This document shows positions 14,045 to 44,315 of a DNA stretch of 64,000 nucleotides, one piece after another. Position numbers and translations under genes: made by a program. A model generated the notes under the pieces. The model was not told the origin of the DNA. It saw nothing but the letters and a program-made list of their open reading frames with translations, and searched no databases. The first letter of the stretch is position 1; each line of letters opens with the position of its first letter. Source of the stretch: a virus. The stretch is from positions 13,618-77,617 of the IMG/VR virus record IMGVR_UViG_3300014627_000002. The stretch is one strand, 5' to 3'.

Positions 14045-14063
14045 TTATGCGTATTTGCATAAT
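14045..14063 (+). promoter_or_regulatory. GCATAA/TTATGC palindrome (operator/promoter candidate)
   Basis: TTATGC-GTATTT-GCATAA has perfect 6-bp arms, and CATAAT overlaps the right arm. It lies 70 nt upstream of 14133. Confidence 0.5.
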
Positions 14064-14132
14064 AGAAATATTGATATTCATGTCTTTTTTAAATCAACGA
14101 AACTGCTATAAGTTTCAAGGTAGTTTAGAGCT

Positions 14133-15119
14133 ATGACATACACAACAGAATACTTAGAAAATGAAGCCGGTATACAAAATAACGGTGTCACCATACTGAA
14201 TGATCAAAAAATTGAATTACAAGTTTCTGGCTTGGTCATTGGCCAATTTAAGCGTGGCCGCTTTGACAAACCCATGACAATCACAAGTGCAAATGTACGC
14301 GGTACTCTTGGCCATGATCCACGCAACCCGTGGTACCAAATTATTGTTGATGCCATAGATTCAGGTGTACCAAGTATTGAAGTTTTGCGTATACCAGGTA
14401 ACTACTACAATTATGAAGATGTTGAGCCAGAACCAGAACCAATCTGGCAACCGTGGCAATTTGACCAAGAAATTTCTATTAACAGCAATATGGCGAGATA
14501 TACAGCTTCTAAAACCAACGGTAAGCAATTAGCAAGCAGTTATGCCGAAATAGATTTAATAGCTGCTCTGGTACGCTCATTTTCTGATATAGATATGCAA
14601 CAGTGGCAAGCTGTGAAAGATGCAGCAAATCAATTGACAGGTGTGAATGATTGGGTTTTAGATCCGGCGAATAATCGCGTTAAATATTATGAAAAAGTAA
14701 GTACTGGTAAGTATGGCTGGGTTGAAGTTAATAATGATACTGATCCCAAACACATTTCAGCTACTCTTGCATGTCAATTTTATGCTTCTAAACTAAAAAG
14801 AACGTACGCTCGAACTTATCAATTTTCTGATCGAAATGCGTTTTGTTATGATGTTAAAAATGATCTTTATGTTCAATTAGCTCGTACTCTTCAACCCCCG
14901 ATTGTTGAAGAACAAGAAAGATATTTACCTCTCGATGTTGTAGCGCAAAAAGTCATCTCTAATGCTGAGTCACTGGACCAGGGTATTTCTCTTTTAGCAG
15001 AAACCTATATAGAAACCGTCGCGAAAAGTATTTTTAACAGTGACCAGTCAAAGCAATTTGTGAAACAAGATGATCTGGTATTGCAATTTGAAGAAAACAA
15101 GGTGATTGAAAATTTATAG
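14133..15119 (+). CDS. structural-protein paralogue (N-terminal ~90 aa shared with the gene at 63278)
   Basis: The N-terminus ..LENEAGIQ..GLVIGQFKRGRFDKPMTITSANVRGTLGHDPRNPWY..SGVPSIEVLR aligns with the 63278 product. The C-terminus is unrelated. Terminators flank the gene on both sides. Confidence 0.65.
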   Translation: MTYTTEYLENEAGIQNNGVTILNDQKIELQVSGLVIGQFKRGRFDKPMTITSANVRGTLGHDPRNPWYQIIVDAIDSGVPSIEVLRIPGNYYNYEDVEPEPEPIWQPWQFDQEISINSNMARYTASKTNGKQLASSYAEIDLIAALVRSFSDIDMQQWQAVKDAANQLTGVNDWVLDPANNRVKYYEKVSTGKYGWVEVNNDTDPKHISATLACQFYASKLKRTYARTYQFSDRNAFCYDVKNDLYVQLARTLQPPIVEEQERYLPLDVVAQKVISNAESLDQGISLLAETYIETVAKSIFNSDQSKQFVKQDDLVLQFEENKVIENL

Positions 15120-15134
15120 AAACCTAGAAAGACA

Positions 15135-15166
15135 AAAGCCCTAAATGGCGGTCATTTAGGGCTTTT
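15135..15166. terminator. bidirectional rho-independent terminator
   Basis: AAAGCCCTAAATG-GCGGT-CATTTAGGGCTTT. Confidence 0.75.
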
Positions 15167-15324
15167 GAAGTCTGTATTCAGCGATAAATACAAACCTAAC
15201 AAGACGAGAGAATTTTATCACAGAAAACAAAGATGTAAACGTTATTTTTTGTATGAAGCGACAACAGAAGTCGTACATTTCTAAAAGAGGTTTTAATATT
15301 TCATAGGCTAAAAAAAAACCATTC

Positions 15325-15349
15325 GCATAATCATTATGCATTAATGCAT
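15325..15349. promoter_or_regulatory. overlapping GCATAA-type palindromes
   Basis: GCATAATCATTATGC (15325-15339) overlaps ATGCATTAATGCAT (15336-15349). Confidence 0.45.
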
Positions 15350-15510
15350 AAAAGTAAGAAACCTTTATTTCTATTTTAGCTGCTATTTAATACATGTTAT
15401 TCAAGTTTTAAATTTAAATTTAAAAAAATAATTGGCTTTTAATATAATAATAGCTTTTGTAGTATTTTAAGTCCGCTGTAACCCTTGTGCTGCAAAGCTT
15501 ACAGGATATT

Positions 15511-15606
15511 AAAAGATAGTTTTTCCGAGTTATAAAGATAGTTTTTCCGATGTGGATAACTCATTAAAAGATAGTTTTTCCGAGCAGCAGGATAGTTTGT
15601 AGATTG
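15511..15606 (+). repeat. iterons upstream of rep (3 good copies plus 1 degenerate copy)
   Basis: AAAAGATAGTTTTTCCGAG occurs at 15511 and 15566. TAAAGATAGTTTTTCCGAT occurs at 15533. A degenerate copy CAGGATAGTTTGTAGATTG occurs at 15588. An inverted partial copy follows at 15607. Confidence 0.9.
15551..15559 (-). promoter_or_regulatory. DnaA box
   Basis: TGTGGATAA is the complement of the consensus TTATCCACA. It lies between iterons 2 and 3. Confidence 0.6.
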
Positions 15607-15662
15607 ACTATCTTTCAAGGTTAATTTATAAAGGATCTAAAAATGAAGTACACCGGATAAAA

Positions 15663-16586
15663 ATGAAAATGCAGAGTCGGCTTGTAGTTAAAGATAATGC
15701 ACTGATAGATGCAAGCTTTAACTTAACCCTTATTGAACAGCGTTTAATGCTATTGGCTATTGTTGAAGCCAGGGAACTATCAACACTCACCCCATCTATA
15801 CCCGTAGAAGTCACTGTAAAGAGCTATATTGAACAATATAAAGTAAAAGAGAGCACTGCATACGAAACATTGTTTGATGCGTGTAAAACGCTAAGACGGC
15901 GTGAATTTAGCTATATAGACCGTTATAAGAATAGTGATGCTGTTTCTACTGCAGGTTGGGTGAATAAAGTCACTTATGTAAAGTCTAAGGGCATAGTGGT
16001 TTTATATCTAAGTGAAGAAGTGATCAGCATGATCAGCCGGTTAGAAGAACAATTTACTCGTTACCATTTAGAGCAGGTTTCAGATTTTAATAGTAAATAT
16101 AGCATTCGACTCTATGAAGTGGTTATCAAGTGGTTAGCAGCTGGTAAAACTGGAAAGATTGCTATCAATGATCTACGTGCACGGCTGGGACTGCAAGATA
16201 CTGAATATAAAACCATGAGCCTGTTTAAAACTAATGTGCTTGATAAGGCAGTTGATGAAATTAACGCTAAAACAGACGTGCGGGTAAAGTATGATCAGTA
16301 TAGATCAGGCCGAACAATTAGCCATTTTTCCTTTACGTTGAAAGAGAAACGTGTAATTAAAACAGTTAAGGATGCTAAACAGTATCAGTTTGAATTATCA
16401 GCAAAACAGGTTGATTTTTTTGCAAATAAACTTGCTTCTGACCCTAATTTCGGTAGCCAGTATGCAAAAGTTGGGGAAAGCGTTGAAGACTTTGAGATCC
16501 GAGTAAAAGGACAGTTAGCTCAAAAGACCTATTGTGCTAAGTATTCTGAGCATTTAATTCGTTTAGGTTATATCGAAAAAACTTAA
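15663..16586 (+). CDS. rep: Rep_3-family plasmid replication initiator
   Basis: The N-terminus LVVKDNALIDASFNLTLIEQRLMLLAI.. is typical of Rep_3 initiators. Its own iterons flank the gene on both sides. Confidence 0.9.
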   Translation: MKMQSRLVVKDNALIDASFNLTLIEQRLMLLAIVEARELSTLTPSIPVEVTVKSYIEQYKVKESTAYETLFDACKTLRRREFSYIDRYKNSDAVSTAGWVNKVTYVKSKGIVVLYLSEEVISMISRLEEQFTRYHLEQVSDFNSKYSIRLYEVVIKWLAAGKTGKIAINDLRARLGLQDTEYKTMSLFKTNVLDKAVDEINAKTDVRVKYDQYRSGRTISHFSFTLKEKRVIKTVKDAKQYQFELSAKQVDFFANKLASDPNFGSQYAKVGESVEDFEIRVKGQLAQKTYCAKYSEHLIRLGYIEKT

Positions 16587-16633
16587 ATTAATTTTTGGTT
16601 AAAAATCTTTTTATATCAAAAAGATTGCTTGGT

Positions 16634-16700
16634 AAAAGATAGTTTTTCCGAGTAAATAAAAGATAGTTTTTCCGAGTGAATAAAAGATAGTTTTTCCGAG
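16634..16700 (+). repeat. iterons downstream of rep (3 perfect copies, 24-bp period)
   Basis: AAAAGATAGTTTTTCCGAG occurs at 16634, 16658 and 16682. Confidence 0.9.
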
Positions 16701-16716
16701 TGGATTTAAAGCCGTT

Positions 16717-17406
16717 TTAACTGTCTTTGTTTAGCAGATTTCTATTAAGCACCTGCTTCACTGTTTTTGCATACCAGAGCCCGCCATGCTTGCTTTTAAT
16801 AGCCTGTTTATTCAGTGATGATGCTATTTTTCTATATCCAAAACCCTGTTGTTTAAGCTCAAGCATAAGCGTTATGGTCTGTTGTTCATCCGGGTTCTGC
16901 ACCAGGTTATCTTCTTCTTTGTCATATCCATACGGCACATGCGAGTACACCTTGTCATTTGCACGTAAATAGTCAATAACCAGCTTTGTACGCTCAGATA
17001 TTTGGTCGCGTTCAAACTGGTTGAGTACTGCCAGAATGCTAAATACCATTCTGCCCGTGGCGCCAGTAGTATCAATATTTTCAGATAGGCTAACCATATC
17101 AGCGCCAGTTTTATTGATGTACTCAGCTATTGATAAGGTATCGATAGTATTACGGCTAACCCGGGAAAGGCTATAAAAGACAAATACCATGTCTTTCTCT
17201 AATGAATTTAAGGCTTCTTTTAATTTTGGCCGGTTAATAACTTTCTTTCCTGAAATCCCTTCATCAATAAAAATCTGGACCAATTCATAATTATGAAAAT
17301 TGGCCCATTGTTTGATTTTTTCAGTTTGTGCTTCTAATGAAAGTCCATCTTGTGCCTGTTTCAGTGTGCTCACACGTACATAGCCGATAGCTTTTCTCTT
17401 AATCAC
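16717..17406 (-). CDS. serine recombinase (resolvase/invertase catalytic domain plus the start of a large-serine-recombinase-type recombinase domain)
   Basis: The N-terminus is IGYVRVSTLKQ...GLSLEAQ. The C-terminal part, PYGYDKEEDNLVQNPDEQQTI..GFGYRKIASSLN..GGLWYAKTVKQVLNRN, resembles the beginning of the LSR recombinase domain. The protein then stops at 229 aa. Confidence 0.8.
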   Translation of the reverse strand: MIKRKAIGYVRVSTLKQAQDGLSLEAQTEKIKQWANFHNYELVQIFIDEGISGKKVINRPKLKEALNSLEKDMVFVFYSLSRVSRNTIDTLSIAEYINKTGADMVSLSENIDTTGATGRMVFSILAVLNQFERDQISERTKLVIDYLRANDKVYSHVPYGYDKEEDNLVQNPDEQQTITLMLELKQQGFGYRKIASSLNKQAIKSKHGGLWYAKTVKQVLNRNLLNKDS

Positions 17407-17410
17407 GTCC

Positions 17411-17692
17411 TTACTGTCCCTTATATTTCTCTAATCCATCTTTCAAGAACTGGTTAAGCGCTTCTCTACGAGTCTTAAATTTACGTGAATTAACTACGAA
17501 CAGGTCCAGTTCCTGTTTTGTATCTGCATCACAGTCCCAATTCACACGGACCGTTTCTGCACTAGCTGCGGCCTTTTTACTTGGCGCTGTAGTGTCTTCA
17601 GCAGGGCTATCGTTTTGTGCAAACTCTTTAGCTTCTGCAAAACGGTTTTTAGCACCTGGTTTAGCAATTGCCTGGCGTGGTTTTGTCGTCAT
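17411..17692 (-). CDS. ParG-like ribbon-helix-helix partition/centromere-binding protein
   Basis: 93 aa, directly downstream of parA. It has a disordered basic N-terminus and a C-terminal RHH-like pattern (VRVNWDCDADTKQELDLFVV..TRREALNQFLKDGL). Confidence 0.6.
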   Translation of the reverse strand: MTTKPRQAIAKPGAKNRFAEAKEFAQNDSPAEDTTAPSKKAAASAETVRVNWDCDADTKQELDLFVVNSRKFKTRREALNQFLKDGLEKYKGQ

Positions 17693-17697
17693 GTTTA

Positions 17698-18342
17698 CTA
17701 CCCTTGTTTAAGTGCCTTTAAAACTTCTTTACCAAAGTCTTGAAACTGTTGTTTAGCTTTCTGGTGATTATGAATCAGTGCATGTTTTCCAAGTCCAATG
17801 ACTTCTTCATAAGCTACATAATTTGAGATCGGGACCGGTATTTCTGGATAACCAAAAGTTTCTAATGCTGCTTCACGTATCTCGTTAGATTTAGACGTGT
17901 TTTTAAACCTATTCCAGACAATACGCAAATTAACTTTTTTGTCTTTAGCTTCTAGTGCCTTAGTAATAAGTTCAGCCATATCACTTACTGCCCACAGATC
18001 AGGGGAAGTGGCTGCCATAGGAAGTAATACCAGGTCGCTGATATAAAGGATCGCGTTCATGATTTCAGCCATACGCGGCGGTGAATCAATTACTACATAG
18101 TCATACTTGCCTTCAGCAGCTTCAAGAACCTGCATAAGTTCATCAAGATTACGAGCTGTTTCACAGGTCAGTTTTGGATGCTCAAACATACTGCACCAGG
18201 CAGACAATGTACCTTGCGGTAAGTCGGCATCAACTGCCAGAACTGTCTTTTTCTTTTCAAGAAGGAACCCGCATAGATTCGCTGATAAAGTGGACTTACC
18301 GGCCCCACCCTTTAATTGTAAGAATGAAATATATTGTGTCAT
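17698..18342 (-). CDS. parA: ParA-type partition ATPase (small, type Ib-like)
   Basis: Deviant Walker A LKGGAGKST. The start is placed at ATG 18342 behind AGGGA. The listed longer ORF needs a TTG at 18381 inside the GAAC-box array. Confidence 0.85.
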   Translation of the reverse strand: MTQYISFLQLKGGAGKSTLSANLCGFLLEKKKTVLAVDADLPQGTLSAWCSMFEHPKLTCETARNLDELMQVLEAAEGKYDYVVIDSPPRMAEIMNAILYISDLVLLPMAATSPDLWAVSDMAELITKALEAKDKKVNLRIVWNRFKNTSKSNEIREAALETFGYPEIPVPISNYVAYEEVIGLGKHALIHNHQKAKQQFQDFGKEVLKALKQG

Positions 18343-18357
18343 GGGTTCCCTGTTTAT

Positions 18358-18407
18358 TTGTTTAAATGAAAAAATGTTCAAATGAACTAAAATTCATTTG
18401 AACATTT
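18358..18407 (+). promoter_or_regulatory. 8-bp-phased GAAC-box array, site D (parA promoter / candidate centromere)
   Basis: TTGTTTAAATGAAAAAATGTTCAAATGAACTAAAATTCATTTGAACATTT has direct and inverted GAAC/GTTC boxes in 8-bp register. It starts 16 nt upstream of the parA ATG. Confidence 0.6.
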
Positions 18408-18441
18408 TAGGTGAAAAAAAACGAAATTACAAATTAGGAAA

Positions 18442-19344
18442 TTATATCTTCAAGAACTCCGTAAATTCTTTATAAATTTGAGTAAGTTGAGCGTGTGTTA
18501 AGGTTTCAAATGAAAGATTACGATTCTTCAAAACATCACTCAAACGGTTATTATGCGGTCTCATAAATTCATCGACTTTATTTTTAAAGCTGAGTGAAGC
18601 TAAGCGATTTTCTGATTGTGGCGGCGGTGCATTATGCTGATTGTTCTGTACTTCATTTTCATAATGATCTTGACCATTATCATGAGTTGTTTCAGTTGGA
18701 ATAGAAAATGACTGCAGGTAAAGATACTTTTGAGCCATTGAAGCCGCTTTTGATGTAGCTTTATCGCCACTATCATTAGCTTCACCAGTAAACATGCATT
18801 CAATTCTGGACCCATCTTCAGCTGAGAAAAAAATGAATCGAATTGAAAGGCAGGTTTTAAAAATAATATCACCATACTTGTTCTGGTATTTACTCACTGT
18901 CATTTGCTCAGTATGTGGAATACAAACAAGTTTATGCTCAGCCATAAGTGGCGAAATTACGTTATAAAGATCATCAATACTGCGATAGCTAAAGTCATAT
19001 TTTTTATCATTGCTATTTGACTTTTTAGTACCGTTAGTAGAATTAGTACTCTTAGTAGGATTGGTACTACGGGATTTGCTTACTCCACCCATTTCAATAA
19101 TTTTTTGCTGTATTGCATTAAGTGCAGTTAACACAGCAAAACCCTTTTCAAAAAAGAACTTCGGCGCTTCTGCACTTACCAGTTTAACCATTTCCACAGC
19201 TTCATTTGCATTCAATGTAACTGGCTGAGTTTGATTGTTCTTAGCCTGACTATTTATGGCCGGTTGACTTGATGCCTGTTTTTTTGGAGCTGGAGCATAT
19301 TGCTGGTCGCTAAATGGATCTGGATATTGGTTATAAGCATTCAT
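18442..19344 (-). CDS. erf: ERF-family single-strand annealing recombinase
   Basis: The central block YRSIDDLYNVISPLMAEHKL...GEANDSGDKATSKAASMAQKYLYLQSF matches the ERF pattern. The N-terminus is low-complexity and Q/N/S-rich. Confidence 0.65.
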   Translation of the reverse strand: MNAYNQYPDPFSDQQYAPAPKKQASSQPAINSQAKNNQTQPVTLNANEAVEMVKLVSAEAPKFFFEKGFAVLTALNAIQQKIIEMGGVSKSRSTNPTKSTNSTNGTKKSNSNDKKYDFSYRSIDDLYNVISPLMAEHKLVCIPHTEQMTVSKYQNKYGDIIFKTCLSIRFIFFSAEDGSRIECMFTGEANDSGDKATSKAASMAQKYLYLQSFSIPTETTHDNGQDHYENEVQNNQHNAPPPQSENRLASLSFKNKVDEFMRPHNNRLSDVLKNRNLSFETLTHAQLTQIYKEFTEFLKI

Positions 19345-19358
19345 TATTTTTGATCTCC

Positions 19359-19727
19359 TTATTCAACATCACTTGGAAGTCTTTTTTCTAAAAAAGCTTG
19401 ATGCTGTTCAAGCACCATGTCTTGTGCATCGGCTTCAATATCAATGGCACGGCCAACAAGCATAAATAGAACAACAAAAGTCGCGATGCCTAATGGCACC
19501 AGTGCATAACGGCCAAGCCGTTCTAGTTGTTCTTTAGTAGGGATAACCTGACGGACTAAACACAATGAGTAAACCAAAGCATATAGCAGCACTATGGCTA
19601 AATAAGTTTGAATGTTTTGCGCCCAACGTTTTAAGGCATCACGGCTTGGAGCCGTTTGAATAAAAGCATTCACAAGATTTGCACGAATGGTATTAAGTCT
19701 TAATTTTTCGTTAGTTAAAGTTTTCAT
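19359..19727 (-). CDS. membrane protein, function unknown (first gene of the leftward operon)
   Basis: 122 aa with two hydrophobic helices. A GCATAA palindrome lies 33 nt upstream. Confidence 0.55.
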   Translation of the reverse strand: MKTLTNEKLRLNTIRANLVNAFIQTAPSRDALKRWAQNIQTYLAIVLLYALVYSLCLVRQVIPTKEQLERLGRYALVPLGIATFVVLFMLVGRAIDIEADAQDMVLEQHQAFLEKRLPSDVE

Positions 19728-19759
19728 AACAACCGCCTATATTTTGTCTTGTAACAACA

Positions 19760-19777
19760 TTATGCGCAAACGCATAA
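19760..19777. promoter_or_regulatory. GCATAA/TTATGC palindrome (operator candidate for the leftward erf-par operon)
   Basis: TTATGCG-CAAA-CGCATAA has perfect 7-bp arms. Extra half-sites TATGCAATAGCGCATAAAAT follow. Confidence 0.55.
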
Positions 19778-19837
19778 AAATATGCAATAGCGCATAAAAT
19801 ATTTTATATAAGCTGGTTTATAAGAATAATTCGCATT

Positions 19838-19869
19838 AAAAAAGGACGGTTAAAAAACCGTCCTTTTTT
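19838..19869. terminator. bidirectional rho-independent terminator
   Basis: AAAAAAGGACGGT-TAAAAA-ACCGTCCTTTTTT, downstream of the leftward repressor gene. Confidence 0.8.
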
Positions 19870-19892
19870 GTAAATTTATGTACTTTGCTTTA

Positions 19893-20678
19893 TCAATACT
19901 TATTCGTAACGAATAGAACACGCCCTAAAATCTGGAAAGTTGGGTCATTTTCAGTATTGACAGTGTATTCAGGAAAATTTTCCTGTTTGGCTCTTACTCG
20001 AATGCTGCCATCAGGTTCAAGAAATAAAGTACGCACATATTTATTTTTACCATGCTTAATTACAAAGTAATCACCATTGGTACTCGGTGTAACTTCTTCC
20101 TCCTTCAAGTTAAAAGTGACAGCTGCGCCGGGTGTAATTTCGGGTGCATTTGCACGATCTTCAGAATAGACAAATCGTAGATCGTTATGTGAAATATTAT
20201 CGCTTACTAGCTGAGCCGCTATCATAATTGTTGAATCTCTACCCGCGTTTTTATCTTTGAGTGCATTAGGATTATTCGCATCCTCATACATGCGCACAAG
20301 AATAAAATTTTCGTCAGATATGCGCAAGGTATTATCTTGAACTTTTACAATAATGTCTTGCTGTTCAAGTCCTGCAAGCCACTCACTATTTAATCCGAGG
20401 GCTTTTGCGATATTGGGAATGAAGCGGGATTTCTTGGTTTTCCCCATAATGATACGGCTAATTGTGGCTTGTTCTACATCGGCTAATTTTGCTAATTCAT
20501 CCTGCGTAAGCCCCGATTCATCAAGGGCAAGTTCTAATCTGACTGAGGACAATGGACGATCCGTATTGAGTTGCCCAAACCCCTTTTTAACATAGTCAAT
20601 AGTCTTGTCATCTTTAATATTTATTCGAGATGACAGAGAAGCCTCATCAACCGGATTCGGCTGTACGTTAATATCCAT
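19893..20678 (-). CDS. CI-like repressor (XRE helix-turn-helix plus a LexA/S24-like C-terminal domain that appears to lack the Ser/Lys dyad)
   Basis: HTH is LTQDELAKLADVEQATISRIIMGK. The C-terminal beta-rich domain, ..PGAAVTFN..GDYFVIKHGKNKYVRTLFLEPDGSIRVRA..ILGRVLF, resembles the S24 fold. It is divergent from a Cro-like gene. Confidence 0.75.
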   Translation of the reverse strand: MDINVQPNPVDEASLSSRINIKDDKTIDYVKKGFGQLNTDRPLSSVRLELALDESGLTQDELAKLADVEQATISRIIMGKTKKSRFIPNIAKALGLNSEWLAGLEQQDIIVKVQDNTLRISDENFILVRMYEDANNPNALKDKNAGRDSTIMIAAQLVSDNISHNDLRFVYSEDRANAPEITPGAAVTFNLKEEEVTPSTNGDYFVIKHGKNKYVRTLFLEPDGSIRVRAKQENFPEYTVNTENDPTFQILGRVLFVTNKY

Positions 20679-20743
20679 TCTTATTTAAACCTCAAAAACC
20701 CATACGCAAAAGATTAAAAGCCATGTCATTTCAGGCTTTCTTT

Positions 20744-20856
20744 CATAATTATGCAATAAAAAAATGAAAGTTCAATTAAGCCAAGAACTACGTCAAGCAT
20801 CAAAGTGCTTGCTAAAATATTCGCTTGCGCATAATATTTATGCTAATGAGCATAAT
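20744..20856. promoter_or_regulatory. cI/cro intergenic switch region with palindromic operators
   Basis: It contains CATAATTATG (20744-20753), CAAGCA-TCAAAG-TGCTTG (20794-20811), GCATAA-TAT-TTATGC (20829-20843) and GCATAAT (20850-20856). Confidence 0.6.
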
Positions 20857-20870
20857 TTAATGATAAGTTA

Positions 20871-21197
20871 ATGTTTTTAGATAGAGGAAATATGCGAAAG
20901 CGAATTTATGAAATTATTCCGGACATTGGAAAGGCAAAAGTTGATGCCTTCTGTGCCGCTTATAATATTTACTTTAGAAATCAAAAAGATGCAGGCGATA
21001 TTTTAAAAGTTGGTCAAGCCACTATTAGCCGGTACTTAGAGGGATCTATTTTGGTACCGATGGAGGTCGCCGTGCGATTTGAAAAACACACGAATGGCTT
21101 GGTCAGTACAGACTCAATTTTCTTTGATTACAAAGAATACAAATATGATTTAAAGCAAAAGGAGAGAGAAATACAAAACCACAAGAAAAGCGCTTAA
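20871..21197 (+). CDS. Cro/YdaS-like helix-turn-helix regulator
   Basis: LKVGQATISRYLEGSILVPMEVAVRFEKHTNG resembles Cro/YdaS-type HTH proteins. It is divergent from the repressor. Confidence 0.6.
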   Translation: MFLDRGNMRKRIYEIIPDIGKAKVDAFCAAYNIYFRNQKDAGDILKVGQATISRYLEGSILVPMEVAVRFEKHTNGLVSTDSIFFDYKEYKYDLKQKEREIQNHKKSA

Positions 21198-21263
21198 CAA
21201 GATTACCTGTTAAGTACAGGTTGCAACACAAGAAACAAGACAGTTACACAGCGGAAATACAAC

Positions 21264-22301
21264 ATGACAAGTTTAGCGATAGGCGACATTTTAGGTATGT
21301 CGTCAGAACCTTATGCAGCCGATAGTAGACCTAAAAATATTACAAGGGCACTGCATAACCGGGAAAACCCCTATACCTTGCTTTCAAATAAGTTATTGCG
21401 TGATACATCGATCCGTCATTCGGACCGTGGACTGATGGCGCAATTACTATCTTGGTCCGATTATCACAATGTTTGCATTCAAGCCTTGGTCAAAAAAAGT
21501 GTAGAAGGCCGTGATGCTATTCGCGGAATGATAGATCGGCTAATCACTGCAGGTTACATACGCATGCAACAAACAAAAAGTGAAGATGGCCGCTTTGACA
21601 AAGTGGTGTATCAGCTTTTTGAAGAATCTACTGGTGCGATAGTGGCTAACCTGGATTTAACTGGAATAGAAGAAAATCAGGATGATCCAGCGGCGGCACA
21701 ATTAGATTTATTTGAATGCGAGTTAGTAATGATGGAAAACCAGGATAAAACCGGTAATGTGAACCAGTCCGCAAACGGAAAAGCCGTAAACGGAAAACAC
21801 GACACTAATAATAACTATGATTCAAGAAATACTAATTTTAATAGTAATAAGCATGAATCTGGATTTGTTGAAAAGAAAAGTGAAAAGGAAACCAAAGAGA
21901 GTCTATTAAACAAATGGCCGTTAGATATTAAAAATTCACAGGTAGTGGCCCGTTTAGGTATGGCAGGTTTGAACTCTTTTGTTCCTGATCAAGAAACATT
22001 GAATCGTTACTTGATTGACTTCAATCAACAGCATGAAAAATATAAAGCTTTAAGTGATTCACAACGTCTGAATAACTTCACTTCATATTTGGTTCGTATT
22101 AAGCACACGCCAGTTGAATACACAAAACATTTAGCTCGGCTTCGTGCTCTTGGCTTTGATGTTCAAATGCCTGTCCGCAAGACTGAAAGAAAAGCATCGC
22201 AAAGAGTCCAGACTAATCAGGCCAATGTAAATCCATTTCCGGTGAGTTCTAACCAGGCGATTGTTCCCCCAGCTGCACATATCTCTTTTGAGGGATTTTA
22301 A
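21264..22301 (+). CDS. phage replication initiator/organiser-like protein (winged helix)
   Basis: The N-terminal region NPYTLLSNKLLRD..LMAQLLSW...GRDAIRGMIDRLITAGYIR resembles replication protein winged-helix domains. It lies directly upstream of a DnaC-like loader. Confidence 0.5.
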   Translation: MTSLAIGDILGMSSEPYAADSRPKNITRALHNRENPYTLLSNKLLRDTSIRHSDRGLMAQLLSWSDYHNVCIQALVKKSVEGRDAIRGMIDRLITAGYIRMQQTKSEDGRFDKVVYQLFEESTGAIVANLDLTGIEENQDDPAAAQLDLFECELVMMENQDKTGNVNQSANGKAVNGKHDTNNNYDSRNTNFNSNKHESGFVEKKSEKETKESLLNKWPLDIKNSQVVARLGMAGLNSFVPDQETLNRYLIDFNQQHEKYKALSDSQRLNNFTSYLVRIKHTPVEYTKHLARLRALGFDVQMPVRKTERKASQRVQTNQANVNPFPVSSNQAIVPPAAHISFEGF

Positions 22302-22302
22302 G

Positions 22303-23277
22303 ATGGGAGTATCACTTATGAAAACATTGGAATTGAAATGTGAGCTTCACGGTGAATACCAAAAATATATCACTGATGCAGATAAAGCTTGTCCGCATTG
22401 TAGAAGTGAAATGGCTCAAAAACAGCAAGATCAATATATTGAGAATACCAAGCCGTTAAATGGCCTTTTTCTTGATCTCACGATTGCTTGTGATGTGCAT
22501 GGTCCACAGATCGTACAGGTGCCAAAGTTTCTTGCTGACAAGCTAAGCCATTGTCCTAAATGCGTTCAAGCCAAACGTGAGCAGAAGCTTCAGAAGAAAA
22601 TTGAAAAACGAGCAAGTGAAATCATCGAGCAGGCGGGAATACCGTTAAACAGTATTGGCCATACTTTTTCCCAAGCTGACCGTAGCAAAAGTATTAAACA
22701 AACAGCAATTATTGAACGCCTGATTACCTATATTCAGGATATTACTGCCAGAGGTGATAGTACTGGTGCCAAGAATATTATGCTGAGTGGCAACATGGGT
22801 ACCGGAAAGACTTATTTTGCTTCAATACTTCTGCAAAATATTATTGTTCGGGCATGTGAAAAAGCATTGAGTGATGAATCGAATATCAGATTTAAAGGCG
22901 GCTTGGCTATTCAATTTATTAGTGAACAAGCATTGCAATCGGCCATTACTGCAACTTGGTCAGACAAGTCTGAAACAACCAAACAACTTTATGAGCGCCT
23001 TTCAAGTAAAGCCATTCTATGTATTGACGATGTAGGTACCGTTAGCAGTACTCAGACGCACTTGCTTGATGCATACGCTGCAATTCTTGATGAACGTTAC
23101 AAACGTAACCTGCCGACCATTATCACCTCAAATATGACTCATGAGGGCCTAAAGCTGGCTATTGGGGCCCGAGCAGCTGACCGCTTTTTAGAAAAGAACA
23201 GGGTAATCGTTGCTAACTTTGATTGGCACGGGTACCGGACGGCGCAAGAAGGCACAAACGAAATCGAATTTTTTTAA
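22303..23277 (+). CDS. DnaC/IstB-like AAA+ helicase loader with an N-terminal double zinc ribbon
   Basis: Walker A is SGNMGTGKTY and Walker B is LCIDDVG. N-terminal pairs are CELH..CPHC and CDVH..CPKC. The start ATG 22303 sits behind GAGGGA, right after the upstream stop. Confidence 0.8.
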   Translation: MGVSLMKTLELKCELHGEYQKYITDADKACPHCRSEMAQKQQDQYIENTKPLNGLFLDLTIACDVHGPQIVQVPKFLADKLSHCPKCVQAKREQKLQKKIEKRASEIIEQAGIPLNSIGHTFSQADRSKSIKQTAIIERLITYIQDITARGDSTGAKNIMLSGNMGTGKTYFASILLQNIIVRACEKALSDESNIRFKGGLAIQFISEQALQSAITATWSDKSETTKQLYERLSSKAILCIDDVGTVSSTQTHLLDAYAAILDERYKRNLPTIITSNMTHEGLKLAIGARAADRFLEKNRVIVANFDWHGYRTAQEGTNEIEFF

Positions 23278-23291
23278 ATAAGGGCTAAATC

Positions 23292-24212
23292 ATGAGTAAT
23301 TCTTTAAGAAATGAAAAGATTCAAAAGTGGACATTAGCCCGTAAAGGCCGCATGTCGTTACTTGCTTCACTTTTAGAAATGGACAAGCAACTGCTATATC
23401 GCATGGTTACAGACTTTCGCCTATCAACTCATTTGATTAATGAGATTGAAAAAAAGCAAAAGGAAGTAGAAGGTCTGGAAGTTGAATGTATTCGCGAGTT
23501 TGACTATCTCAAGCGTTTTGCTGCTAAAGGACATGGCAGGATTGCAAAGCTGGCGCAAAAGATGGGTGAACCGACTCATAGAATGTATGGACTGGTTAAA
23601 GCAACGGGTGATTCACGTTATCTGCTAATCCAGTACGGTACACAGCAGGTTATGAAAGCTGTCACTGAAATCGAACGTGAGTTTAAAGGCCGTTATAACA
23701 AAGGTCAGATAAATATAAAGGATTTTCTAACTAAAGAGGTACGCGGTAAAAACTACACATTAAAGGAAATTGAGTGTCTAGCTGGAAAATTTAAAGAACA
23801 CGCCGACTTTGCCAATCATGATGCAGCGGTTATTTGTCAGAAAATAGGTGAAGACAAATACAAGGTCCTATCAATGGGCTTTGATACTCAGCTGCCGGAA
23901 CTATGTCAATCACATATATGCGAAAAGGAAAATCCGCATATTCATGCATTAACAATGGCTGTATTAAACCTGCATCGGGAGCCAGTTAAAGAAACAGGGG
24001 AGCTTATAGCATTTGGCCATAGTGCGCCGTGTCCGTCTTGTGCCAAGCGTCTTAATAAAAGGGGCATTGCTCAAGTCTATTGCTATTTTGAACCTGAATT
24101 ACTTGATGGGCTTGTTCTTTTGGCTAAAAACCGAGTCCCCGTTATCAAAATAAACCTAGTAAATTCAACATTTAAACAGATTAACAAGGAACTGTTACAT
24201 GATGCTGCTTAG
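23292..24212 (+). CDS. hypothetical protein with a C-terminal deaminase-like zinc motif (Glu replaced)
   Basis: H-A-L is followed, 26 residues later, by PCPSC..RGIAQVYCY. This mimics the HAE..PCxxC cytidine/deoxycytidylate deaminase signature without the catalytic Glu. Confidence 0.6.
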   Translation: MSNSLRNEKIQKWTLARKGRMSLLASLLEMDKQLLYRMVTDFRLSTHLINEIEKKQKEVEGLEVECIREFDYLKRFAAKGHGRIAKLAQKMGEPTHRMYGLVKATGDSRYLLIQYGTQQVMKAVTEIEREFKGRYNKGQINIKDFLTKEVRGKNYTLKEIECLAGKFKEHADFANHDAAVICQKIGEDKYKVLSMGFDTQLPELCQSHICEKENPHIHALTMAVLNLHREPVKETGELIAFGHSAPCPSCAKRLNKRGIAQVYCYFEPELLDGLVLLAKNRVPVIKINLVNSTFKQINKELLHDAA

Positions 24213-24221
24213 GAGAAAGCA

Positions 24222-24527
24222 ATGTTTGATTGTTATTTACGCGGGATTTACAAGGATGCCCTTCACCGGCAACTTGTCGCACTTTGTGAAGGCATAGAGT
24301 CAGCTGAAACAATTGTATTTAACAGTGAGAAAAATTCACGTTATTACGATTTAGAAAATGGCCGTTATGTGTATGCAGTGGATGGTGTGGACCAATATGG
24401 AGTAACTGTAGTGAGTTACATCAAGAAAGGTTTAGTAAGAAAAGAGGAAAGAATTTTCCCTAACTTGATTGATCTTCACTCATTAAAGGCAGCGATTAGC
24501 TCATTTAGATTGGCTAAGCGTAAATAA
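24222..24527 (+). CDS. hypothetical protein
   Basis: 101-aa ORF with GGAGAAAG SD. Confidence 0.6.
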   Translation: MFDCYLRGIYKDALHRQLVALCEGIESAETIVFNSEKNSRYYDLENGRYVYAVDGVDQYGVTVVSYIKKGLVRKEERIFPNLIDLHSLKAAISSFRLAKRK

Positions 24528-24554
24528 CCTCTAACGGTTTTTTTATGTCCGTAT

Positions 24555-24592
24555 GTTATGCGAATTAGTATAATTTTAACAATTCGCATAAC
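24555..24592 (+). promoter_or_regulatory. early-type promoter with flanking operator arms
   Basis: GTTATGCGAATT-AGTATAATTTTAAC-AATTCGCATAAC has perfect 12-bp inverted arms around a consensus TATAAT (24569-24574). Confidence 0.65.
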
Positions 24593-24669
24593 AATGGGGA
24601 TAAAATTAAAGATATACACAAATTATTTACATAATTTTGCATAAAAACAGTTTTATTAGGGGCTTTTAA

Positions 24670-25458
24670 GTGGAACTGGAAAAGGAAAATTTTACTTTAA
24701 TGCATGGTGATTGTCTGGAATTGCTCAAGACCTTGCCAAGTGAAAGTATTGATATGATCTTGTGTGATTTGCCGTATGGAACGACCTGTTGCAGCTGGGA
24801 CGTTATTATACCGCTAGAGCCATTATGGGCCGAATATGAGCGTGTAATTAAACCGAATGGGGCAATTGTACTTTTTGCTGCCCAGCCCTTTACCTCTATA
24901 TTAGCCTGTTCAAATTTAAAATTATTTCGCTATGAGTGGATTTACGAAAAGCCAGCAGCTACAGGCTTTATGAATGCTAAAAAGCAGCCAATGCGTGCTC
25001 ATGAAAATATCCTGGTATTTTATAAACGTCAGCCTACCTATAACCCTATTAAAACGCATGGCCACAAACGCCAGACAGCGAAACGTAGGGATATTGGTTC
25101 AGAACATTATGGAAAGCAGCTAAAGATCCAGGCATACGACTCAACTGAACGCTATCCGAGATCGGTCCAGATATTTAGTTCTGATAAGCAAAAACAGGCA
25201 TTTCACCCTACCCAAAAACCCGTCGCTATCTGTGAATACCTTATTCGCACCTATACAAATCCAGGTGAAACAGTACTTGATAATACGATGGGCAGCGGTA
25301 CCACTGGTGTAGCGTGTGTAAACACTGGACGTAAGTTCATTGGTATGGAGCAAAAGCAGGAATATTTTGATATAGCCCATGAACGCTTAACAGCTGCAAT
25401 TGTTGAGCGAGATATAGTTCAGCAGCCGGATCTGTTTGGAGAATCAGCAGTCGCATGA
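24670..25458 (+). CDS. DNA methyltransferase (N6A/N4C, beta class)
   Basis: ILCDLPYGT (DPPY-type motif IV) precedes TQKP and LDNTMGSGTTGVAC (motif I). GTG start. Confidence 0.85.
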   Translation: MELEKENFTLMHGDCLELLKTLPSESIDMILCDLPYGTTCCSWDVIIPLEPLWAEYERVIKPNGAIVLFAAQPFTSILACSNLKLFRYEWIYEKPAATGFMNAKKQPMRAHENILVFYKRQPTYNPIKTHGHKRQTAKRRDIGSEHYGKQLKIQAYDSTERYPRSVQIFSSDKQKQAFHPTQKPVAICEYLIRTYTNPGETVLDNTMGSGTTGVACVNTGRKFIGMEQKQEYFDIAHERLTAAIVERDIVQQPDLFGESAVA

Positions 25459-25913
25459 ATATGTCCAATCATCAATTATTCGGTATGGCAGAAAGCCGTA
25501 CTGATATATGGGCTACACCGCAAGACTTCTTTGATAAGCTAAATAAGGTTTTCAGCTTTAATTTAGATGTATGTGCTTTACCAGAAAATGCTAAGTGTGC
25601 ACGCTTTTTTAGTCCGGCTGAAGATGGTTTAAAACAGGAATGGACTGGCATTTGCTGGATGAATCCGCCGTATGGACGTGAAATCATTGAATGGATTCAG
25701 AAGGCTGCACATACTGCCAAGCAAGGGCATACAGTCGTTGCACTGGTACCAGTTCGGACAGATGCAAGATGGTGGCAAGACTACTGTTTAAATCGAGAGA
25801 TACATTTTATCCGGGGCCGTTTAAAGTTTGGTGGTTCAACTTCTAATGCGCCGTTTGGGTGTGCAGTTGTAGTCTTTAGGCCCTGTTTAGATGATGTTGA
25901 TTGGACCAAATGA
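25455..25913 (+). CDS. phage Dam-type N6-adenine DNA methyltransferase
   Basis: DIWATPQDFFDKLNKVFSFNLDVCA...WMNPPYG...ALVPVRTDARWW...GRLKF is the typical phage N-6-adenine-methyltransferase family pattern. It has an ATGA overlap with the upstream MTase. Confidence 0.85.
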   Translation: MNMSNHQLFGMAESRTDIWATPQDFFDKLNKVFSFNLDVCALPENAKCARFFSPAEDGLKQEWTGICWMNPPYGREIIEWIQKAAHTAKQGHTVVALVPVRTDARWWQDYCLNREIHFIRGRLKFGGSTSNAPFGCAVVVFRPCLDDVDWTK

Positions 25914-25940
25914 AAAGCCCGCATTACGCGGGCTCTTTCT
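25913..25940. terminator. bidirectional rho-independent terminator
   Basis: AAAAGCCCGC-ATTAC-GCGGGCTCTTTCT between convergent genes. Confidence 0.75.
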
Positions 25941-26329
25941 TACTTATATGAACATACTACATACGCCAGTTGATCATATCTAGATCCTGGTTCGGTATCT
26001 AACCAGCCTGTAGATTGTTCCATTCTTTTGAGGACCTTATCTGTAGAGCTAAAAATAGTAAATTTATCCACTCTAAAGCGGTCATTTTCACAGTCAAAGC
26101 TATTCAGTGAAAGCATATACTGCCCTTTTTTCATTATTTCAGAATCTTGTTCAGCTTTTATCACAAACCAAGCTTGACGCTTGGTGTGCCTGCCGTCTAA
26201 GTATTTCATGTCTTTTAAATTGACAGAATAGTTACTTTCGCCGTCTGAGCCTATTTCCTCCCAGGCATACGCCTGTAATGAAACAAAGCAGAGAACCCCC
26301 ACAAAAATCTTAATTAAAGTTTTATTCAT
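25940..26329 (-). CDS. secreted/periplasmic protein, function unknown (moron-like)
   Basis: It has the signal peptide MNKTLIKIFVGVLCFVSLQAYA. It is an isolated leftward gene with its own upstream region. Confidence 0.6.
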   Translation of the reverse strand: MNKTLIKIFVGVLCFVSLQAYAWEEIGSDGESNYSVNLKDMKYLDGRHTKRQAWFVIKAEQDSEIMKKGQYMLSLNSFDCENDRFRVDKFTIFSSTDKVLKRMEQSTGWLDTEPGSRYDQLAYVVCSYK

Positions 26330-26399
26330 TCGTTTTAGCTATGTCGTTAAAAGCATGAATATGATACTTGGTTAAAAATTAATTAAAAAATTCTATTGC

Positions 26400-26411
26400 G
26401 CATAAATATGC
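26400..26411. promoter_or_regulatory. GCATAA-type palindrome
   Basis: GCATA-AA-TATGC, with an extra half-site CGCATAAG at 26429-26436. It lies in the divergent region between 26329 (-) and 26605 (+). Confidence 0.45.
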
Positions 26412-26548
26412 ATTTAAATATACTCTTTCGCATAAGTTTCTAGGAGTTTATGATAATTAGATTATTTGTAATTTTTTATATGTCCTAATACTTACAGTTC
26501 ACTATTTAATTAGATTAAACAAAACACCGGATATTCTAATTAACTCAA

Positions 26549-26590
26549 ATGTTTAAATGAACAAAAGAACATTTAAACAAATAAACAAAC
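26549..26590 (+). promoter_or_regulatory. 8-bp-phased GAAC-box array, site E
   Basis: ATGTTTAAATGAACAAAAGAACATTTAAACAAATAAACAAAC. Confidence 0.55.
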
Positions 26591-26604
26591 TTAATGAGAT
26601 AAGT

Positions 26605-26832
26605 ATGAATCAAGTAGCCGTTTTTTTTCATCATCAATCAAATTTGAATAACGCCCTTCAGGAAAACAATGGCGATGCATATCGCAAGATTATGATGCAG
26701 GCTGAAAAGCCAGTAATTGAACATACTTTGGTTATTTGTCGTGGCAACCAGACCAAAGCTGCTGAAATGCTGGGCTTAAACCGTGGCACGCTTCGTAAAA
26801 AAATGAAAGAACACGGCTTTATGAAGGCTTGA
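26605..26832 (+). CDS. Fis-family DNA-binding protein
   Basis: The C-terminus GNQTKAAEMLGLNRGTLRKKMKEHGF is nearly the Fis HTH consensus. The start is placed at the in-frame ATG 26605 because the listed ATG 26557 lies inside the repeat array and has no SD. Confidence 0.75.
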   Translation: MNQVAVFFHHQSNLNNALQENNGDAYRKIMMQAEKPVIEHTLVICRGNQTKAAEMLGLNRGTLRKKMKEHGFMKA

Positions 26833-26836
26833 ACTT

Positions 26837-29321: not shown

Positions 29322-29380
29322 TTGTTCATTTAAATAATCTATGTTTAAATGAACAAATGTTCAAATGAACAAATAAACAT
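29322..29380 (+). promoter_or_regulatory. 8-bp-phased GAAC-box array, site F (longest)
   Basis: TTGTTCATTTAAATAATCTATGTTTAAATGAACAAATGTTCAAATGAACAAATAAACAT ends 14 nt before the ATG at 29395. Confidence 0.6.
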
Positions 29381-34103: not shown

Positions 34104-34130
34104 AGACCCGCTATCATGGCGGGTTTTTAT
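34104..34130 (+). terminator. rho-independent terminator
   Basis: ACCCGC-TATCATG-GCGGGT followed by TTTTAT. Confidence 0.7.
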
Positions 34131-34165: not shown

Positions 34166-34303
34166 ATGTAGGTTATAACCTCTATATTATGCATATTGAT
34201 TAACAAATAGACTACTAAAAGCCTGAATATAGTAAATAAGAATATACAGAATCGCATAAATTAATTAACATTTATACATAAAAGCATAAAACTAGGGTAA
34301 TGC

Positions 34304-38778: not shown

Positions 38779-38811
38779 AAGTATAAAACTTAGCATACAA
38801 TATACACAAAC

Positions 38812-38836
38812 GCATATTTAACCATTATAAATATGC
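38812..38836 (+). promoter_or_regulatory. GCATA-type palindrome (operator/promoter candidate)
   Basis: GCATATTTA-ACCATTA-TAAATATGC has 9-bp arms. TATAAA lies inside. Confidence 0.5.
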
Positions 38837-38852
38837 TAAAAGGTATATTAGT

Positions 38853-39092
38853 ATGAGTGATGAAATTGTTTTTAGTGGCTATGCGCGGTGTAAGCACTGC
38901 CTTAACTACAAGATGACTTACCTAGTCAAAGGCGGTTGCGAGCAATGTAACCGCCGTGAACTGGAATATGGTGTAGTGCATAAAGGAGATTTTATTCATT
39001 ACAGTGAATTGCTTCACAGGATAGAGAATGGCGAAGCGTTTATTGACGGCTCTAATTACAGCCTTCCCATAACTAAAAGAAGTTTTGATTAA
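38853..39092 (+). CDS. small zinc-ribbon protein
   Basis: 79 aa with CKHC...CEQC. Confidence 0.55.
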   Translation: MSDEIVFSGYARCKHCLNYKMTYLVKGGCEQCNRRELEYGVVHKGDFIHYSELLHRIENGEAFIDGSNYSLPITKRSFD

Positions 39093-41183: not shown

Positions 41184-41188
41184 TGAGC

Positions 41189-41725: not shown

Positions 41726-41743
41726 AAAATAGGAAAAGTAGTA

Positions 41744-43105: not shown

Positions 43106-43128
43106 AATCTGTAAAGAAAGATTGAAAT

Positions 43129-43157
43129 AGGGCCAGTAGAAATACTGGCCCTTTAAT
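43129..43157 (+). terminator. rho-independent terminator
   Basis: AGGGCCAGTA-GAAA-TACTGGCCCT followed by TT. Confidence 0.65.
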
Positions 43158-43159
43158 TT

Positions 43160-43200
43160 TAGGAATAGAAAAAAAACTGATTTTTCAGCTTCACCAAAAT
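43160..43200 (+). promoter_or_regulatory. late-type promoter candidate (AGGAATA family)
   Basis: TAGGAATAGAAAAAAAACTGA, then CAAAAT at positions 36-41. Confidence 0.55.
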
Positions 43201-43244
43201 AAGCCTTTTAGAAGTCAAAGACGCAAAACTAAAAGGGCTATTTT

Positions 43245-43955
43245 ATGACTGGTATATTGATTGTGATTGGATTCTTCTTTGCTTTATTTATTGGGAGCCG
43301 GTTAGGTAAACGTAGCGTTGCGCACGATTGCCAAGATTACGGCGGTTTTACTTATGGCGATTATTTTTATGAGTGTATAGTCCGTCCGATTGACGAGCCA
43401 GAATACGGCCTACCAGACGCTATAGCTGAACACTCAAAAGCAGATATAAACCCATTTGCAGAAAACACACTGGATAAAGTGAAATTCTTAAAACAGAGTA
43501 CTAAAGATAGTCTGGCCAAAGGTGAATCATCCGGTTTGGCCATATTTCCTGATGGTATGTTTACTGATCAAAAAGAAGAACATGATTGTTTACACTGTCA
43601 GAGTGATGCTAATGAGCTATCACGCCGTATGATTCTATGTAAGGACTGTGGCAATAAACGCTGTCCAAAGGCTCAGAATCATCGTTTTAATTGCACTGGT
43701 AGCAATGTTACGGGCCAGATCGGTAATGTGGATTCTACGGCGGACCAGAAGCGCTTAGACGGCTCTAGTATTGTTCATCAAACTGTACTTCACGATATTG
43801 GTGCAAGTTCATACCAGGCGAATACATTTAAATCCGATTCAACTTATAAAGATGAACCACGTTGTTCAGGTCCATCTGTTGATTCAGGTTCAAACAGTTC
43901 TAGTGATTCATATAGTTCGTGTGACTCAAGCAGTTCCAGCAGTTATAGCGATTAA
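43245..43955 (+). CDS. membrane-anchored Cys-rich protein with a poly-Ser C-terminus
   Basis: N-terminal TM is GILIVIGFFFALFIG. Several CxxC pairs are present. The C-terminus is SGSNSSSDSYSSCDSSSSSSYSD. Confidence 0.55.
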   Translation: MTGILIVIGFFFALFIGSRLGKRSVAHDCQDYGGFTYGDYFYECIVRPIDEPEYGLPDAIAEHSKADINPFAENTLDKVKFLKQSTKDSLAKGESSGLAIFPDGMFTDQKEEHDCLHCQSDANELSRRMILCKDCGNKRCPKAQNHRFNCTGSNVTGQIGNVDSTADQKRLDGSSIVHQTVLHDIGASSYQANTFKSDSTYKDEPRCSGPSVDSGSNSSSDSYSSCDSSSSSSYSD

Positions 43956-43981
43956 TCTTACTATTTAATGAATGGACCCTT

Positions 43982-44164
43982 ATGGCTAATACATCAATCA
44001 TGCGGCCTACTGATGCAAGTCACTTCTTTACAGCATTAAGTGGCCAGACTCGCTACTTCAAAATAGAAGACGGTAAGCTGATGTGCTGGTATGAAGAACT
44101 TCAAGAATGGAAATATCCAATAGCAGCAAACTACCTGATGAAAAACATACAGTTAATCAAGTAG
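43982..44164 (+). CDS. hypothetical protein
   Basis: 60-aa ORF followed by a terminator. Confidence 0.45.
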   Translation: MANTSIMRPTDASHFFTALSGQTRYFKIEDGKLMCWYEELQEWKYPIAANYLMKNIQLIK

Positions 44165-44187
44165 TCAGTTAAAATCCAGATCAATAT

Positions 44188-44211
44188 GACCCGCCGTGTG
44201 CGGGTTTTATT
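44188..44211 (+). terminator. rho-independent terminator
   Basis: ACCCGC-CGTGT-GCGGGT followed by TTTATTT. Confidence 0.7.
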
Positions 44212-44213
44212 TC

Positions 44214-44250
44214 ATGTTTAAATGAACAAATAAACAAATGAACAATAAAA
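44214..44250 (+). promoter_or_regulatory. 8-bp-phased GAAC-box array, site G
   Basis: ATGTTTAAATGAACAAATAAACAAATGAACAATAAAA. Confidence 0.55.
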
Positions 44251-44294
44251 TCTATTTGATATAAATATTCTTTATCGTATTATTCTATGTAATA

Positions 44295-44315
44295 TTATGC
44301 GCATTAGTATAAAAT
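44295..44315 (+). promoter_or_regulatory. early-type promoter/operator
   Basis: TTATGCGCATTAGTATAAAAT is the same box as at 24558 and 34149. ATGCGCAT is palindromic. Confidence 0.55.

Follow-up and report, generated by a model that had tools for sequence, protein, structure and literature searches.

Introduction

In the genetic switch of phage 434, the operators present conserved outer blocks that are contacted by the protein and a centre that is not contacted (PMC1636474). Phage P1 harbors 22 dispersed operators of its C1 repressor, which are asymmetric 17-mers (ATTGCTCTAATAAATTT; PMC8546580). Here, we analyzed a stretch of viral DNA of 64,000 nt (IMG/VR record IMGVR_UViG_3300014627_000002, positions 13,618 to 77,617; hereafter, the window), in which an 18-bp palindrome is dispersed over many intergenic regions. 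We describe this palindrome as the likely operator of a 434-type repressor (CI) encoded by the same element. In the literature that we searched, we found no operator analysis of this family of Acinetobacter phage-plasmids.

Systems in which one repressor acts on many sites of the early region are also known from mycobacteriophage L5 (the stoperators of gp71) and from Streptomyces phage phiC31 (the repeats of the c repressor). In N15, the targets of the lambda-type repressor CB include the promoter of the gene for plasmid replication, and the partition sites are dispersed over the genome.

On the evidence of its plasmid genes and circular plasmid relatives, the Acinetobacter element studied here, roughly 76 kb long, is a phage-plasmid. 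This assignment follows from the syntenic relatives, which are three circular Acinetobacter plasmids (WCHA55 p1_010055, A. soli pGFJ2 and A. defluvii p1_010030), and from the contigs of 75–77.6 kb on which the identical CI-like repressor is found.

An 18-bp palindrome with a fixed spacing

The motif corresponds to one palindrome with a fixed spacing, TTATGC-N6-GCATAA (18 bp; fuller consensus TTATGCGAA-TTCGCATAA). Its half-site, GCATAA/TTATGC, occurs 70 times in the window. Intergenic DNA represents 7.7% of the window and harbors 22 of these copies, against 5.2 ± 2.2 expected from dinucleotide shuffles of intergenic DNA; of the 15 copies of the 7-mer CGCATAA/TTATGCG, 12 are intergenic. When spacings from N0 to N15 were scanned, N6 alone was enriched, with four exact copies, nine copies at no more than one mismatch and 19 at no more than two, and no exact copy was observed in that orientation at any other spacing. 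The nine sites with at most one mismatch compare with 0.47 ± 0.66 in shuffles of the whole window (shuffle maximum of 2). In intergenic DNA alone, eight sites were observed and 0.04 were expected from dinucleotide shuffles. All nine fall within 14045–44312, and only site 15334 lies inside an open reading frame (ORF), a 61-aa ORF on the minus strand (15156–15341). The start codon of this ORF is located inside the perfect operator, and the gene callers did not call it in identical relatives; it is probably spurious. The preliminary description of this DNA, which was made by reading the sequence, had stated that the operator hypothesis would fail if the motif were about as dense in coding sequence. 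The comparison revealed intergenic enrichment instead, and the hypothesis stands.

We scored the window with two matrices. The first one was refined on the window itself, which makes it partly circular, and it identified 16 sites in nine regions at a cutoff of at least 16 bits. The second one was built from relatives only (the A. soli plasmid and the loci L011 and L017) and recovered the same sites, with 13 matches of at least 14 bits against 0.44 expected, 12 of which are intergenic. Overall, about 16 sites are distributed across nine intergenic regions in the early and maintenance half of the element (Table 1). The similarity between the sites stops at the 18–21-mer and the flanks beyond the 18-mer are not conserved, indicating that the sites are not duplicated cassettes.

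The low G+C-content of the intergenic DNA (32%) raises the question of whether AT-rich composition could generate such palindromes by chance. This explanation is already refuted by the excess over intergenic dinucleotide shuffles, by the enrichment of one single spacing and by the matrix built from relatives only, and the motif is moreover conserved in relatives. We consider the probability of a chance origin to be negligible.

The preliminary description had also proposed that the arms of these inverted repeats are variably spaced, which might mean that two proteins share the half-site. The twelve strings that it quoted are all present at their coordinates, and the near-identical 19-mers that it reported at 24556, 34147 and 44295 were recovered as ordinary members of the family with similar centres (GAATTA, GAATTA and GCATTA, respectively). 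The spacing, in contrast, is fixed at N6, and the other spacings are junctions of adjacent sites: GCATAA-N3-TTATGC at 20829 joins sites 20817 and 20838, and the palindromes at 26400, 34138 and 38812 join pairs of sites located 20–31 bp apart. The palindrome at 15325 is an orphan half-site (GCATAA) that has the perfect site 15334 3 bp to its right, the one at 24555 consists of a full site and a further half-site, and the one at 44297 lies inside site 44295. A second protein of different geometry is thus not needed, although CI and the Cro-like protein probably share these sites.

Overlap with predicted promoters

At sites 14045, 19760 (minus strand), 20817, 20838, 24556 and 34147, the gene-proximal half-site and the next base form GCATAAT or GTATAAT, which is a near-consensus -10 box, whereas the distal half rarely yields one. 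At site 14045, for instance, a T follows the right half and completes the -10 box CATAAT, and the ATG at 14133 is found 70 nt downstream. The -10 box of site 19760 is located 32 nt upstream of a leftward gene (19359–19727) that is followed by the erf operon, and site 24556 precedes genes for an N6/N4 methyltransferase and Dam. The DNA upstream of these -10 boxes is not conserved. Site 20890 spans the Shine-Dalgarno sequence and the ATG (20892) of cro, 52 bp from site 20838, and site 44295 is flanked by weak sites at 44265 (30 bp) and 44326 (31 bp). By inspection, we rejected a sigma-54 promoter (no GG/GC elements) and a MerR-type spacer site (the palindrome overlaps the -10 box).

Several modules are directly preceded by terminators, at 34106–34124 (directly before site 34147) and at 44188–44206, and cI is followed by a hairpin (19844–19863) that is flanked by runs of A and T. 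The early region is therefore split into separate units, each with its own predicted operator-promoter. The earlier suggestion of a P1-like spread of sites over many early transcription units is supported by computation.

Table 1. Positions in the window of the putative operators and of the features discussed in the text.
Feature	Position	Strand	Remarks
Operator TTATGC-GTATTT-GCATAA	14045..14062	+	Perfect; 19.9 bits with the relatives-only matrix
Operator TTATGC-ATTAAT-GCATAA	15334..15351	unassigned	Perfect; 311 nt upstream of rep, just before the rep iterons
Operator TTATGC-GTTTGC-GCATAAT (minus-strand reading)	19760..19777	-	Perfect
Partner operator ATATGC-AATAGC-GCATAA	19780..19797	-	20 bp from site 19760
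Operator ATATTC-GCTTGC-GCATAA	20817..20834	+	Two mismatches; 21 bp upstream of site 20838
Operator TTATGC-TAATGA-GCATAA	20838..20855	+	Perfect; overlaps the -10 box CATAAT of the rightward cro promoter
Weaker operator ATATGC-GAAAGC-GAATTT	20890..20907	+	17.4 bits with the window-trained matrix, hence less certain
Operator TTATGC-GAATTA-GTATAA	24556..24573	+	Overlaps a perfect TATAAT; further half-site at 24586-24591
Weaker operator pair	26388-26405, 26418-26435	+	30 bp apart; upstream of a small HTH_8 gene and an FtsK-gamma gene
Operator ATATGC-GAATTA-GCATAA	34147..34164	+	Overlaps CATAAT; upstream of the VRR-NUC operon
Two operators	34242-34259, 34272-34289	+	30 bp apart; within the VRR-NUC operon leader (ATG at a distance of 44 and 14 nt)
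Weaker operator pair	38800-38817, 38831-38848	+	31 bp apart; immediately before the gene at 38853
Operator TTATGC-GCATTA-GTATAA	44295..44312	+	Upstream of the gene at 44380; terminator at 44188-44206
Candidate cI promoter TTGAAC-16-CATAAT	20748..20775	-	The -10 box is a lone half-site
CI-like repressor, 261 aa	19893..20678	-	N-terminal extension, 434-type HTH_3 domain and S24-like C-terminal domain
Cro-like protein, 101 aa	20892..21197	+	ORF start alternatively at 20871; helix-turn-helix-like segment DAGDILKVGQATISRYLEG
Rep_3 initiator	15663-16586		Iterons on both flanks (3+3)
Iterons	15508-15592, 16631-16708		Three plus three direct repeats of AAAAGATAGTTTTTCCGAG on either side of the Rep_3 gene
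Small ParG-like protein, 93 aa	17411-17692
ParA	17698-18381	-
Second dispersed motif	3087-3116, 10061-10074, 10236-10249, 18375-18404, 26550-26563, 29323-29371, 44215-44244

Conservation of the sites in related elements

A de novo palindrome scan retrieved the same geometry as the top or near-top match in every relative. We observed five copies of TATGC-N6-GCATA in A. soli (0.09 expected), eight copies of TATTC-N6-GAATA in WCHA55 (0.15 expected) and seven copies of the latter in A. defluvii (0.25 expected). TATTC sites are essentially absent from the window and A. soli, and WCHA55 and A. defluvii contain no TATGC sites. Mixed TATTC/TATGC sites were found in the loci L018 and L019, including asymmetric TATTC...GCATA sites. 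Orthologous positions in the relatives include the cI/cro intergenic region and the regions upstream of the VRR-NUC operon and of rep. A twin pair separated by 20–21 bp is located between the cI terminator and the erf operon, and this arrangement (19760/19780 in the window) is kept in all relatives. Across eight elements, 22 of the 30 distances between neighboring sites are 20–21 or 30–33 bp. Spacings of two or three helical turns, to which these distances correspond, are those expected of proteins that bind cooperatively along the same DNA face.

The exclusive use of one core variant by each element favors an element-encoded binder over a host factor. A site for a host transcription factor (e.g., Fur-like), an RNA hairpin or a recombination or module-boundary sequence could be invoked, given that site 19760 was flagged as terminator-like and that ATAATCATTAT at 15325 presumably resembles part of a Fur box. 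The asymmetric sites of L018 and L019, however, would break RNA pairing, most sites are not followed by a T-run, and no Rfam family was matched. The similarity also stops at the 18–21-mer, and we regard these explanations as very unlikely.

The CI-like and Cro-like proteins

The CI-like repressor presents a 45-aa N-terminal extension with predicted beta-strands, ahead of a helix-turn-helix domain that matches Pfam HTH_3 (E = 2.5e-7) and the 434 repressor in PDB (E = 1.3e-7). The confident N-terminal part of its AlphaFold model (pLDDT 80–92) aligns with both 434 Cro and the 434 repressor with a TM-score of 0.89 (Foldseek). The C-terminal domain of the model is of low confidence, and the Pfam match to S24 is partial and below cutoff. 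An alignment of CI with LexA, UmuD and lambda CI by hhalign was weak (E = 3e-4, probability of 38%). In this weak alignment (CI residues about 173–216), variable residues (R/N/K/S/T) occupy the place of the catalytic Ser, and an invariant Arg that of the Lys; BLASTP of CI against LexA was uninformative. The S24-like domain therefore appears, from a weak alignment, to lack the catalytic Ser/Lys pair, which makes RecA-stimulated self-cleavage of CI doubtful.

The cro-like gene is divergent from cI. The Cro-like protein has no Pfam match and only a weak match to the PHROG category "transcriptional regulator" (E = 9e-5), its single-sequence AlphaFold model reached a pLDDT of 45, and a word-index search for Cro homologues returned only the query itself. 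The recognition helices of the two proteins are nearly identical (EQATISRI in CI and GQATISRY in the Cro-like protein, with QATISR in common). As far as can be read from these helices, this is the signature of a CI/Cro pair sharing operators.

Taken together, these results suggest that the sites are dispersed 18-bp operators, to which the element's own 434-type CI would bind as a dimer and to which the Cro-like protein would most likely bind as well. We consider this reading to be well supported and probable. The motif, its statistics, the positions of the sites, their conservation and the folds of the proteins are its direct basis, and from these we infer binding, repression and cooperativity. 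The earlier proposal that the sites are operators of the CI-like and/or Cro-like protein is thus supported by computation, through the sites of the cI/cro region, the 434-like domain, the common recognition helix, the conserved positions and the element-specific variants.

Evidence against the operators and alternative binders

Several observations weigh against this reading. A scan for sigma-70 promoters did not find any acceptable -35 box paired with the operator -10 boxes; the operator-overlapping promoters have no recognisable -35 box and their activity is a prediction only. Some sites are too close to a start codon to overlap a promoter (site 34272 at 14 nt and site 38831 at 4 nt). The candidate cI promoter (20748–20775) is not covered by a full operator, unlike lambda PRM; it carries only a lone half-site, so that autoregulation as in lambda is not evident. 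Among the operators, those with three mismatches (20890, 26388, 38800 and 38831) are the least certain and are based only on matrix scores and helical phasing. Finally, the G- and T-type operators do not follow any residue of the recognition helix in CI or Cro, although few immunity types were sampled, and the repressors of A. soli (TTQSTISKI) and A. defluvii (TKQSTISKI) differ there by a single residue, yet their operator variants are different.

The missing -35 box would be accounted for if the motif were a promoter element, composed of a -10 box and a fixed upstream block, and read by RNA polymerase with a specificity factor of the phage or of the host. Indeed, the right half equals a -10 box and the left block is found at a fixed distance. 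The motif has a dyad symmetry, however, which persists in the core variant of WCHA55 and A. defluvii (TATTC...GAATA). Sites also occur in tandem at two or three helical turns, those located 4–14 nt from start codons would make no sense as promoters, and no sigma-like gene was detected among the proteins that we scanned. We therefore find a promoter element quite unlikely.

The lack of a CI residue that tracks the G or T variant also leaves room for another dimeric regulator of the element, in which case CI would recognize something else. The early region encodes other small DNA-binding proteins, and this role could fall to Cro alone, to the small HTH_8 protein (26557) or to a 222-aa protein at 34759, whose counterpart in WCHA55 is annotated as a helix-turn-helix regulator. 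Such a regulator would have to be reconciled with sites that, in every relative, overlap the cro promoter between cI and cro and with a site geometry that suits a 434-like domain. Moreover, the de novo scan did not reveal any other enriched palindrome in the cI/cro intergenic region. This alternative is thus unlikely, and we retain CI, together with the Cro-like protein, as the most plausible binder.

Proposed mechanism and implications

If CI binds these sites as a dimer, its occupancy of the 18-bp operator would exclude RNA polymerase, since the half-site doubles as a -10 box at six or more promoters. Extra sites located two or three helical turns away would allow cooperative binding through the C-terminal domain of CI, and some of them, located in leaders, would add further blocks; the sites near start codons (34272 and 38831) may act as auxiliary sites or roadblocks. 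Each early unit would then be silenced at its own operator, as in P1, and not through a single lambda-style antitermination cascade.

No antirepressor was identified among 20 further early proteins scanned with Pfam; 19 of these 20 proteins have no family, and the one match (DUF1319) is below the curated cutoff. No c4-type antisense RNA was matched by Rfam, and homologues of Coi, Lxc and Ant were not specifically searched for.

These results provide a testable regulatory map for an uncharacterised family of phage-plasmids, with an 18-bp consensus, about 16 sites and nine controlled units. The evolution of immunity specificity could be studied in the simple system that the natural variants, TATGC and TATTC, provide. 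In addition, the sites mark the early promoters of an element composed mostly of genes of unknown function and could serve as repressor-controlled expression parts for Acinetobacter.

A second dispersed motif

A second motif, TGTT[C/T]AAATGAACA (units of TGAACAAA in an 8-bp phase; site sequence TGTTCAAATGAACA), is also dispersed over the window, with six matches at no more than one mismatch against 0.24 expected. The window and six relatives carry its repeats immediately upstream of parA. The A. defluvii plasmid has TATGA/TCATA instead, in the dispersed copies as well as in the repeats upstream of parA. This distribution suggests that the second motif represents operator or centromere sites for the small ParG-like protein, spread over early and late regions. 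The partition sites of N15 are scattered likewise and constitute a parallel.

A broader joint reading can be drawn, which we hold only tentatively and which is less likely than not to be right in all its parts. The replicon would carry two independent dispersed-site systems, with CI/Cro operators doubling as -10 boxes devoid of -35 boxes and ParG-type repeats over early and late regions. The site upstream of rep might couple lysogeny to copy control, the dyad-less repressor would be induced otherwise than by RecA cleavage, and the G and T variants would define immunity groups that are one base pair per half-site apart.

Gene content of the element

The 14–48 kb region also encodes a serine recombinase (resolvase) and ERF, and late genes occupy the remainder of the window. 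An O-like initiator and a DnaC-like helicase loader are encoded rightward from the divergent cro-like gene. The element thus has two replication modules: the O-like initiator and DnaC-like loader (21264–23277), inside the operator-controlled cro operon, and a separate Rep_3/iteron replicon with a conserved operator about 310 bp upstream. The layout of iterons on both sides of rep recalls incC/incA of P1.

One lone leftward gene (25940–26329, minus strand) is wedged between two rightward operator-controlled units and preceded by a strong terminator (25916–25934). It contains an Adhesin_E domain (Pfam match recorded for the identical locus L007) and is a possible lysogenic-conversion gene. A 2117-aa ORF (3204–9557) has counterparts in relatives annotated as N-6 DNA methylase and SNF2-related protein, and we presume that it may encode a DarB-like protein. 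The terminase presents 54% identity to that of Acinetobacter phage vB_AbaM_ABMM1 and about 35% to PacB of P1. The annotations of the long ORF and the PacB-like terminase hint at a distant P1-like ancestry.

Megablast of 14000–27000 did not return any match in the phage collection, and the plasmids gave only a 1% hit. No relative was returned by a scan of genome contigs with the repressor as query, and a metagenome scan with the O-like initiator added only WCHA55-type copies and a single fragment similar to the A. soli plasmid. The element belongs to a family other than the AB group of Acinetobacter phage-plasmids (elements of about 110 kb; Pfeifer et al., PMC7969092), which was set aside because its size and gene content differ.

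Comparison with known systems

The locus resembles the switch of phage 434 in several respects. The repressor and Cro share the HTH_3 fold (inferred for the Cro-like protein here from its helix sequence) with similar recognition helices, and the operators are palindromes with conserved outer blocks around a 6-bp centre. As in 434, cI and cro are divergent, several operators cover the cro promoter and neighboring sites are in helical phase. Sites 20817, 20838 and 20890 of the cI/cro region cover the lytic promoter (site 20838, at CATAAT) and the start of cro in the manner of the lambda/434 switch, and the same is observed in the relatives. In contrast to 434, the operator is 16–18 bp long with TATGC blocks (14 bp with ACAA blocks in 434), and about 16 sites are spread over nine regions instead of the two clusters OL and OR. 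No full operator covers the repressor's own promoter, and CI differs from the 434 repressor by its 45-aa N-terminal extension and by an S24-like domain that appears, in the weak alignment, to have no Ser/Lys pair.

The similarities with P1 concern the organization. Both are plasmid prophages in which one repressor has many operators scattered over separate operons, with iterons flanking rep, and the terminases are distantly related (about 35% identity to PacB). Unlike in P1, the operator is an 18-bp palindrome, no c4-type antisense RNA was found here by Rfam, and the repressor combines a 434-type HTH_3 domain with an S24-like one. The operator symmetry and this type of repressor place the system outside the P1 family; C1 is presumably not an HTH_3/S24 protein.

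The phage-plasmid N15 is a linear molecule that has a telomere resolvase, another type of replicon and far fewer repressor sites than the element described here. The conserved inverted repeats of phiC31 are palindromic and located at a set of similar early promoters. The sites of L5 are asymmetric and orientation-dependent and block elongation. The L5 and phiC31 proteins and hosts are unrelated to those of this element. Control circuits of this kind are familiar in phages, and the one described here most likely combines proteins of the lambda/434 type with a P1-like logic.

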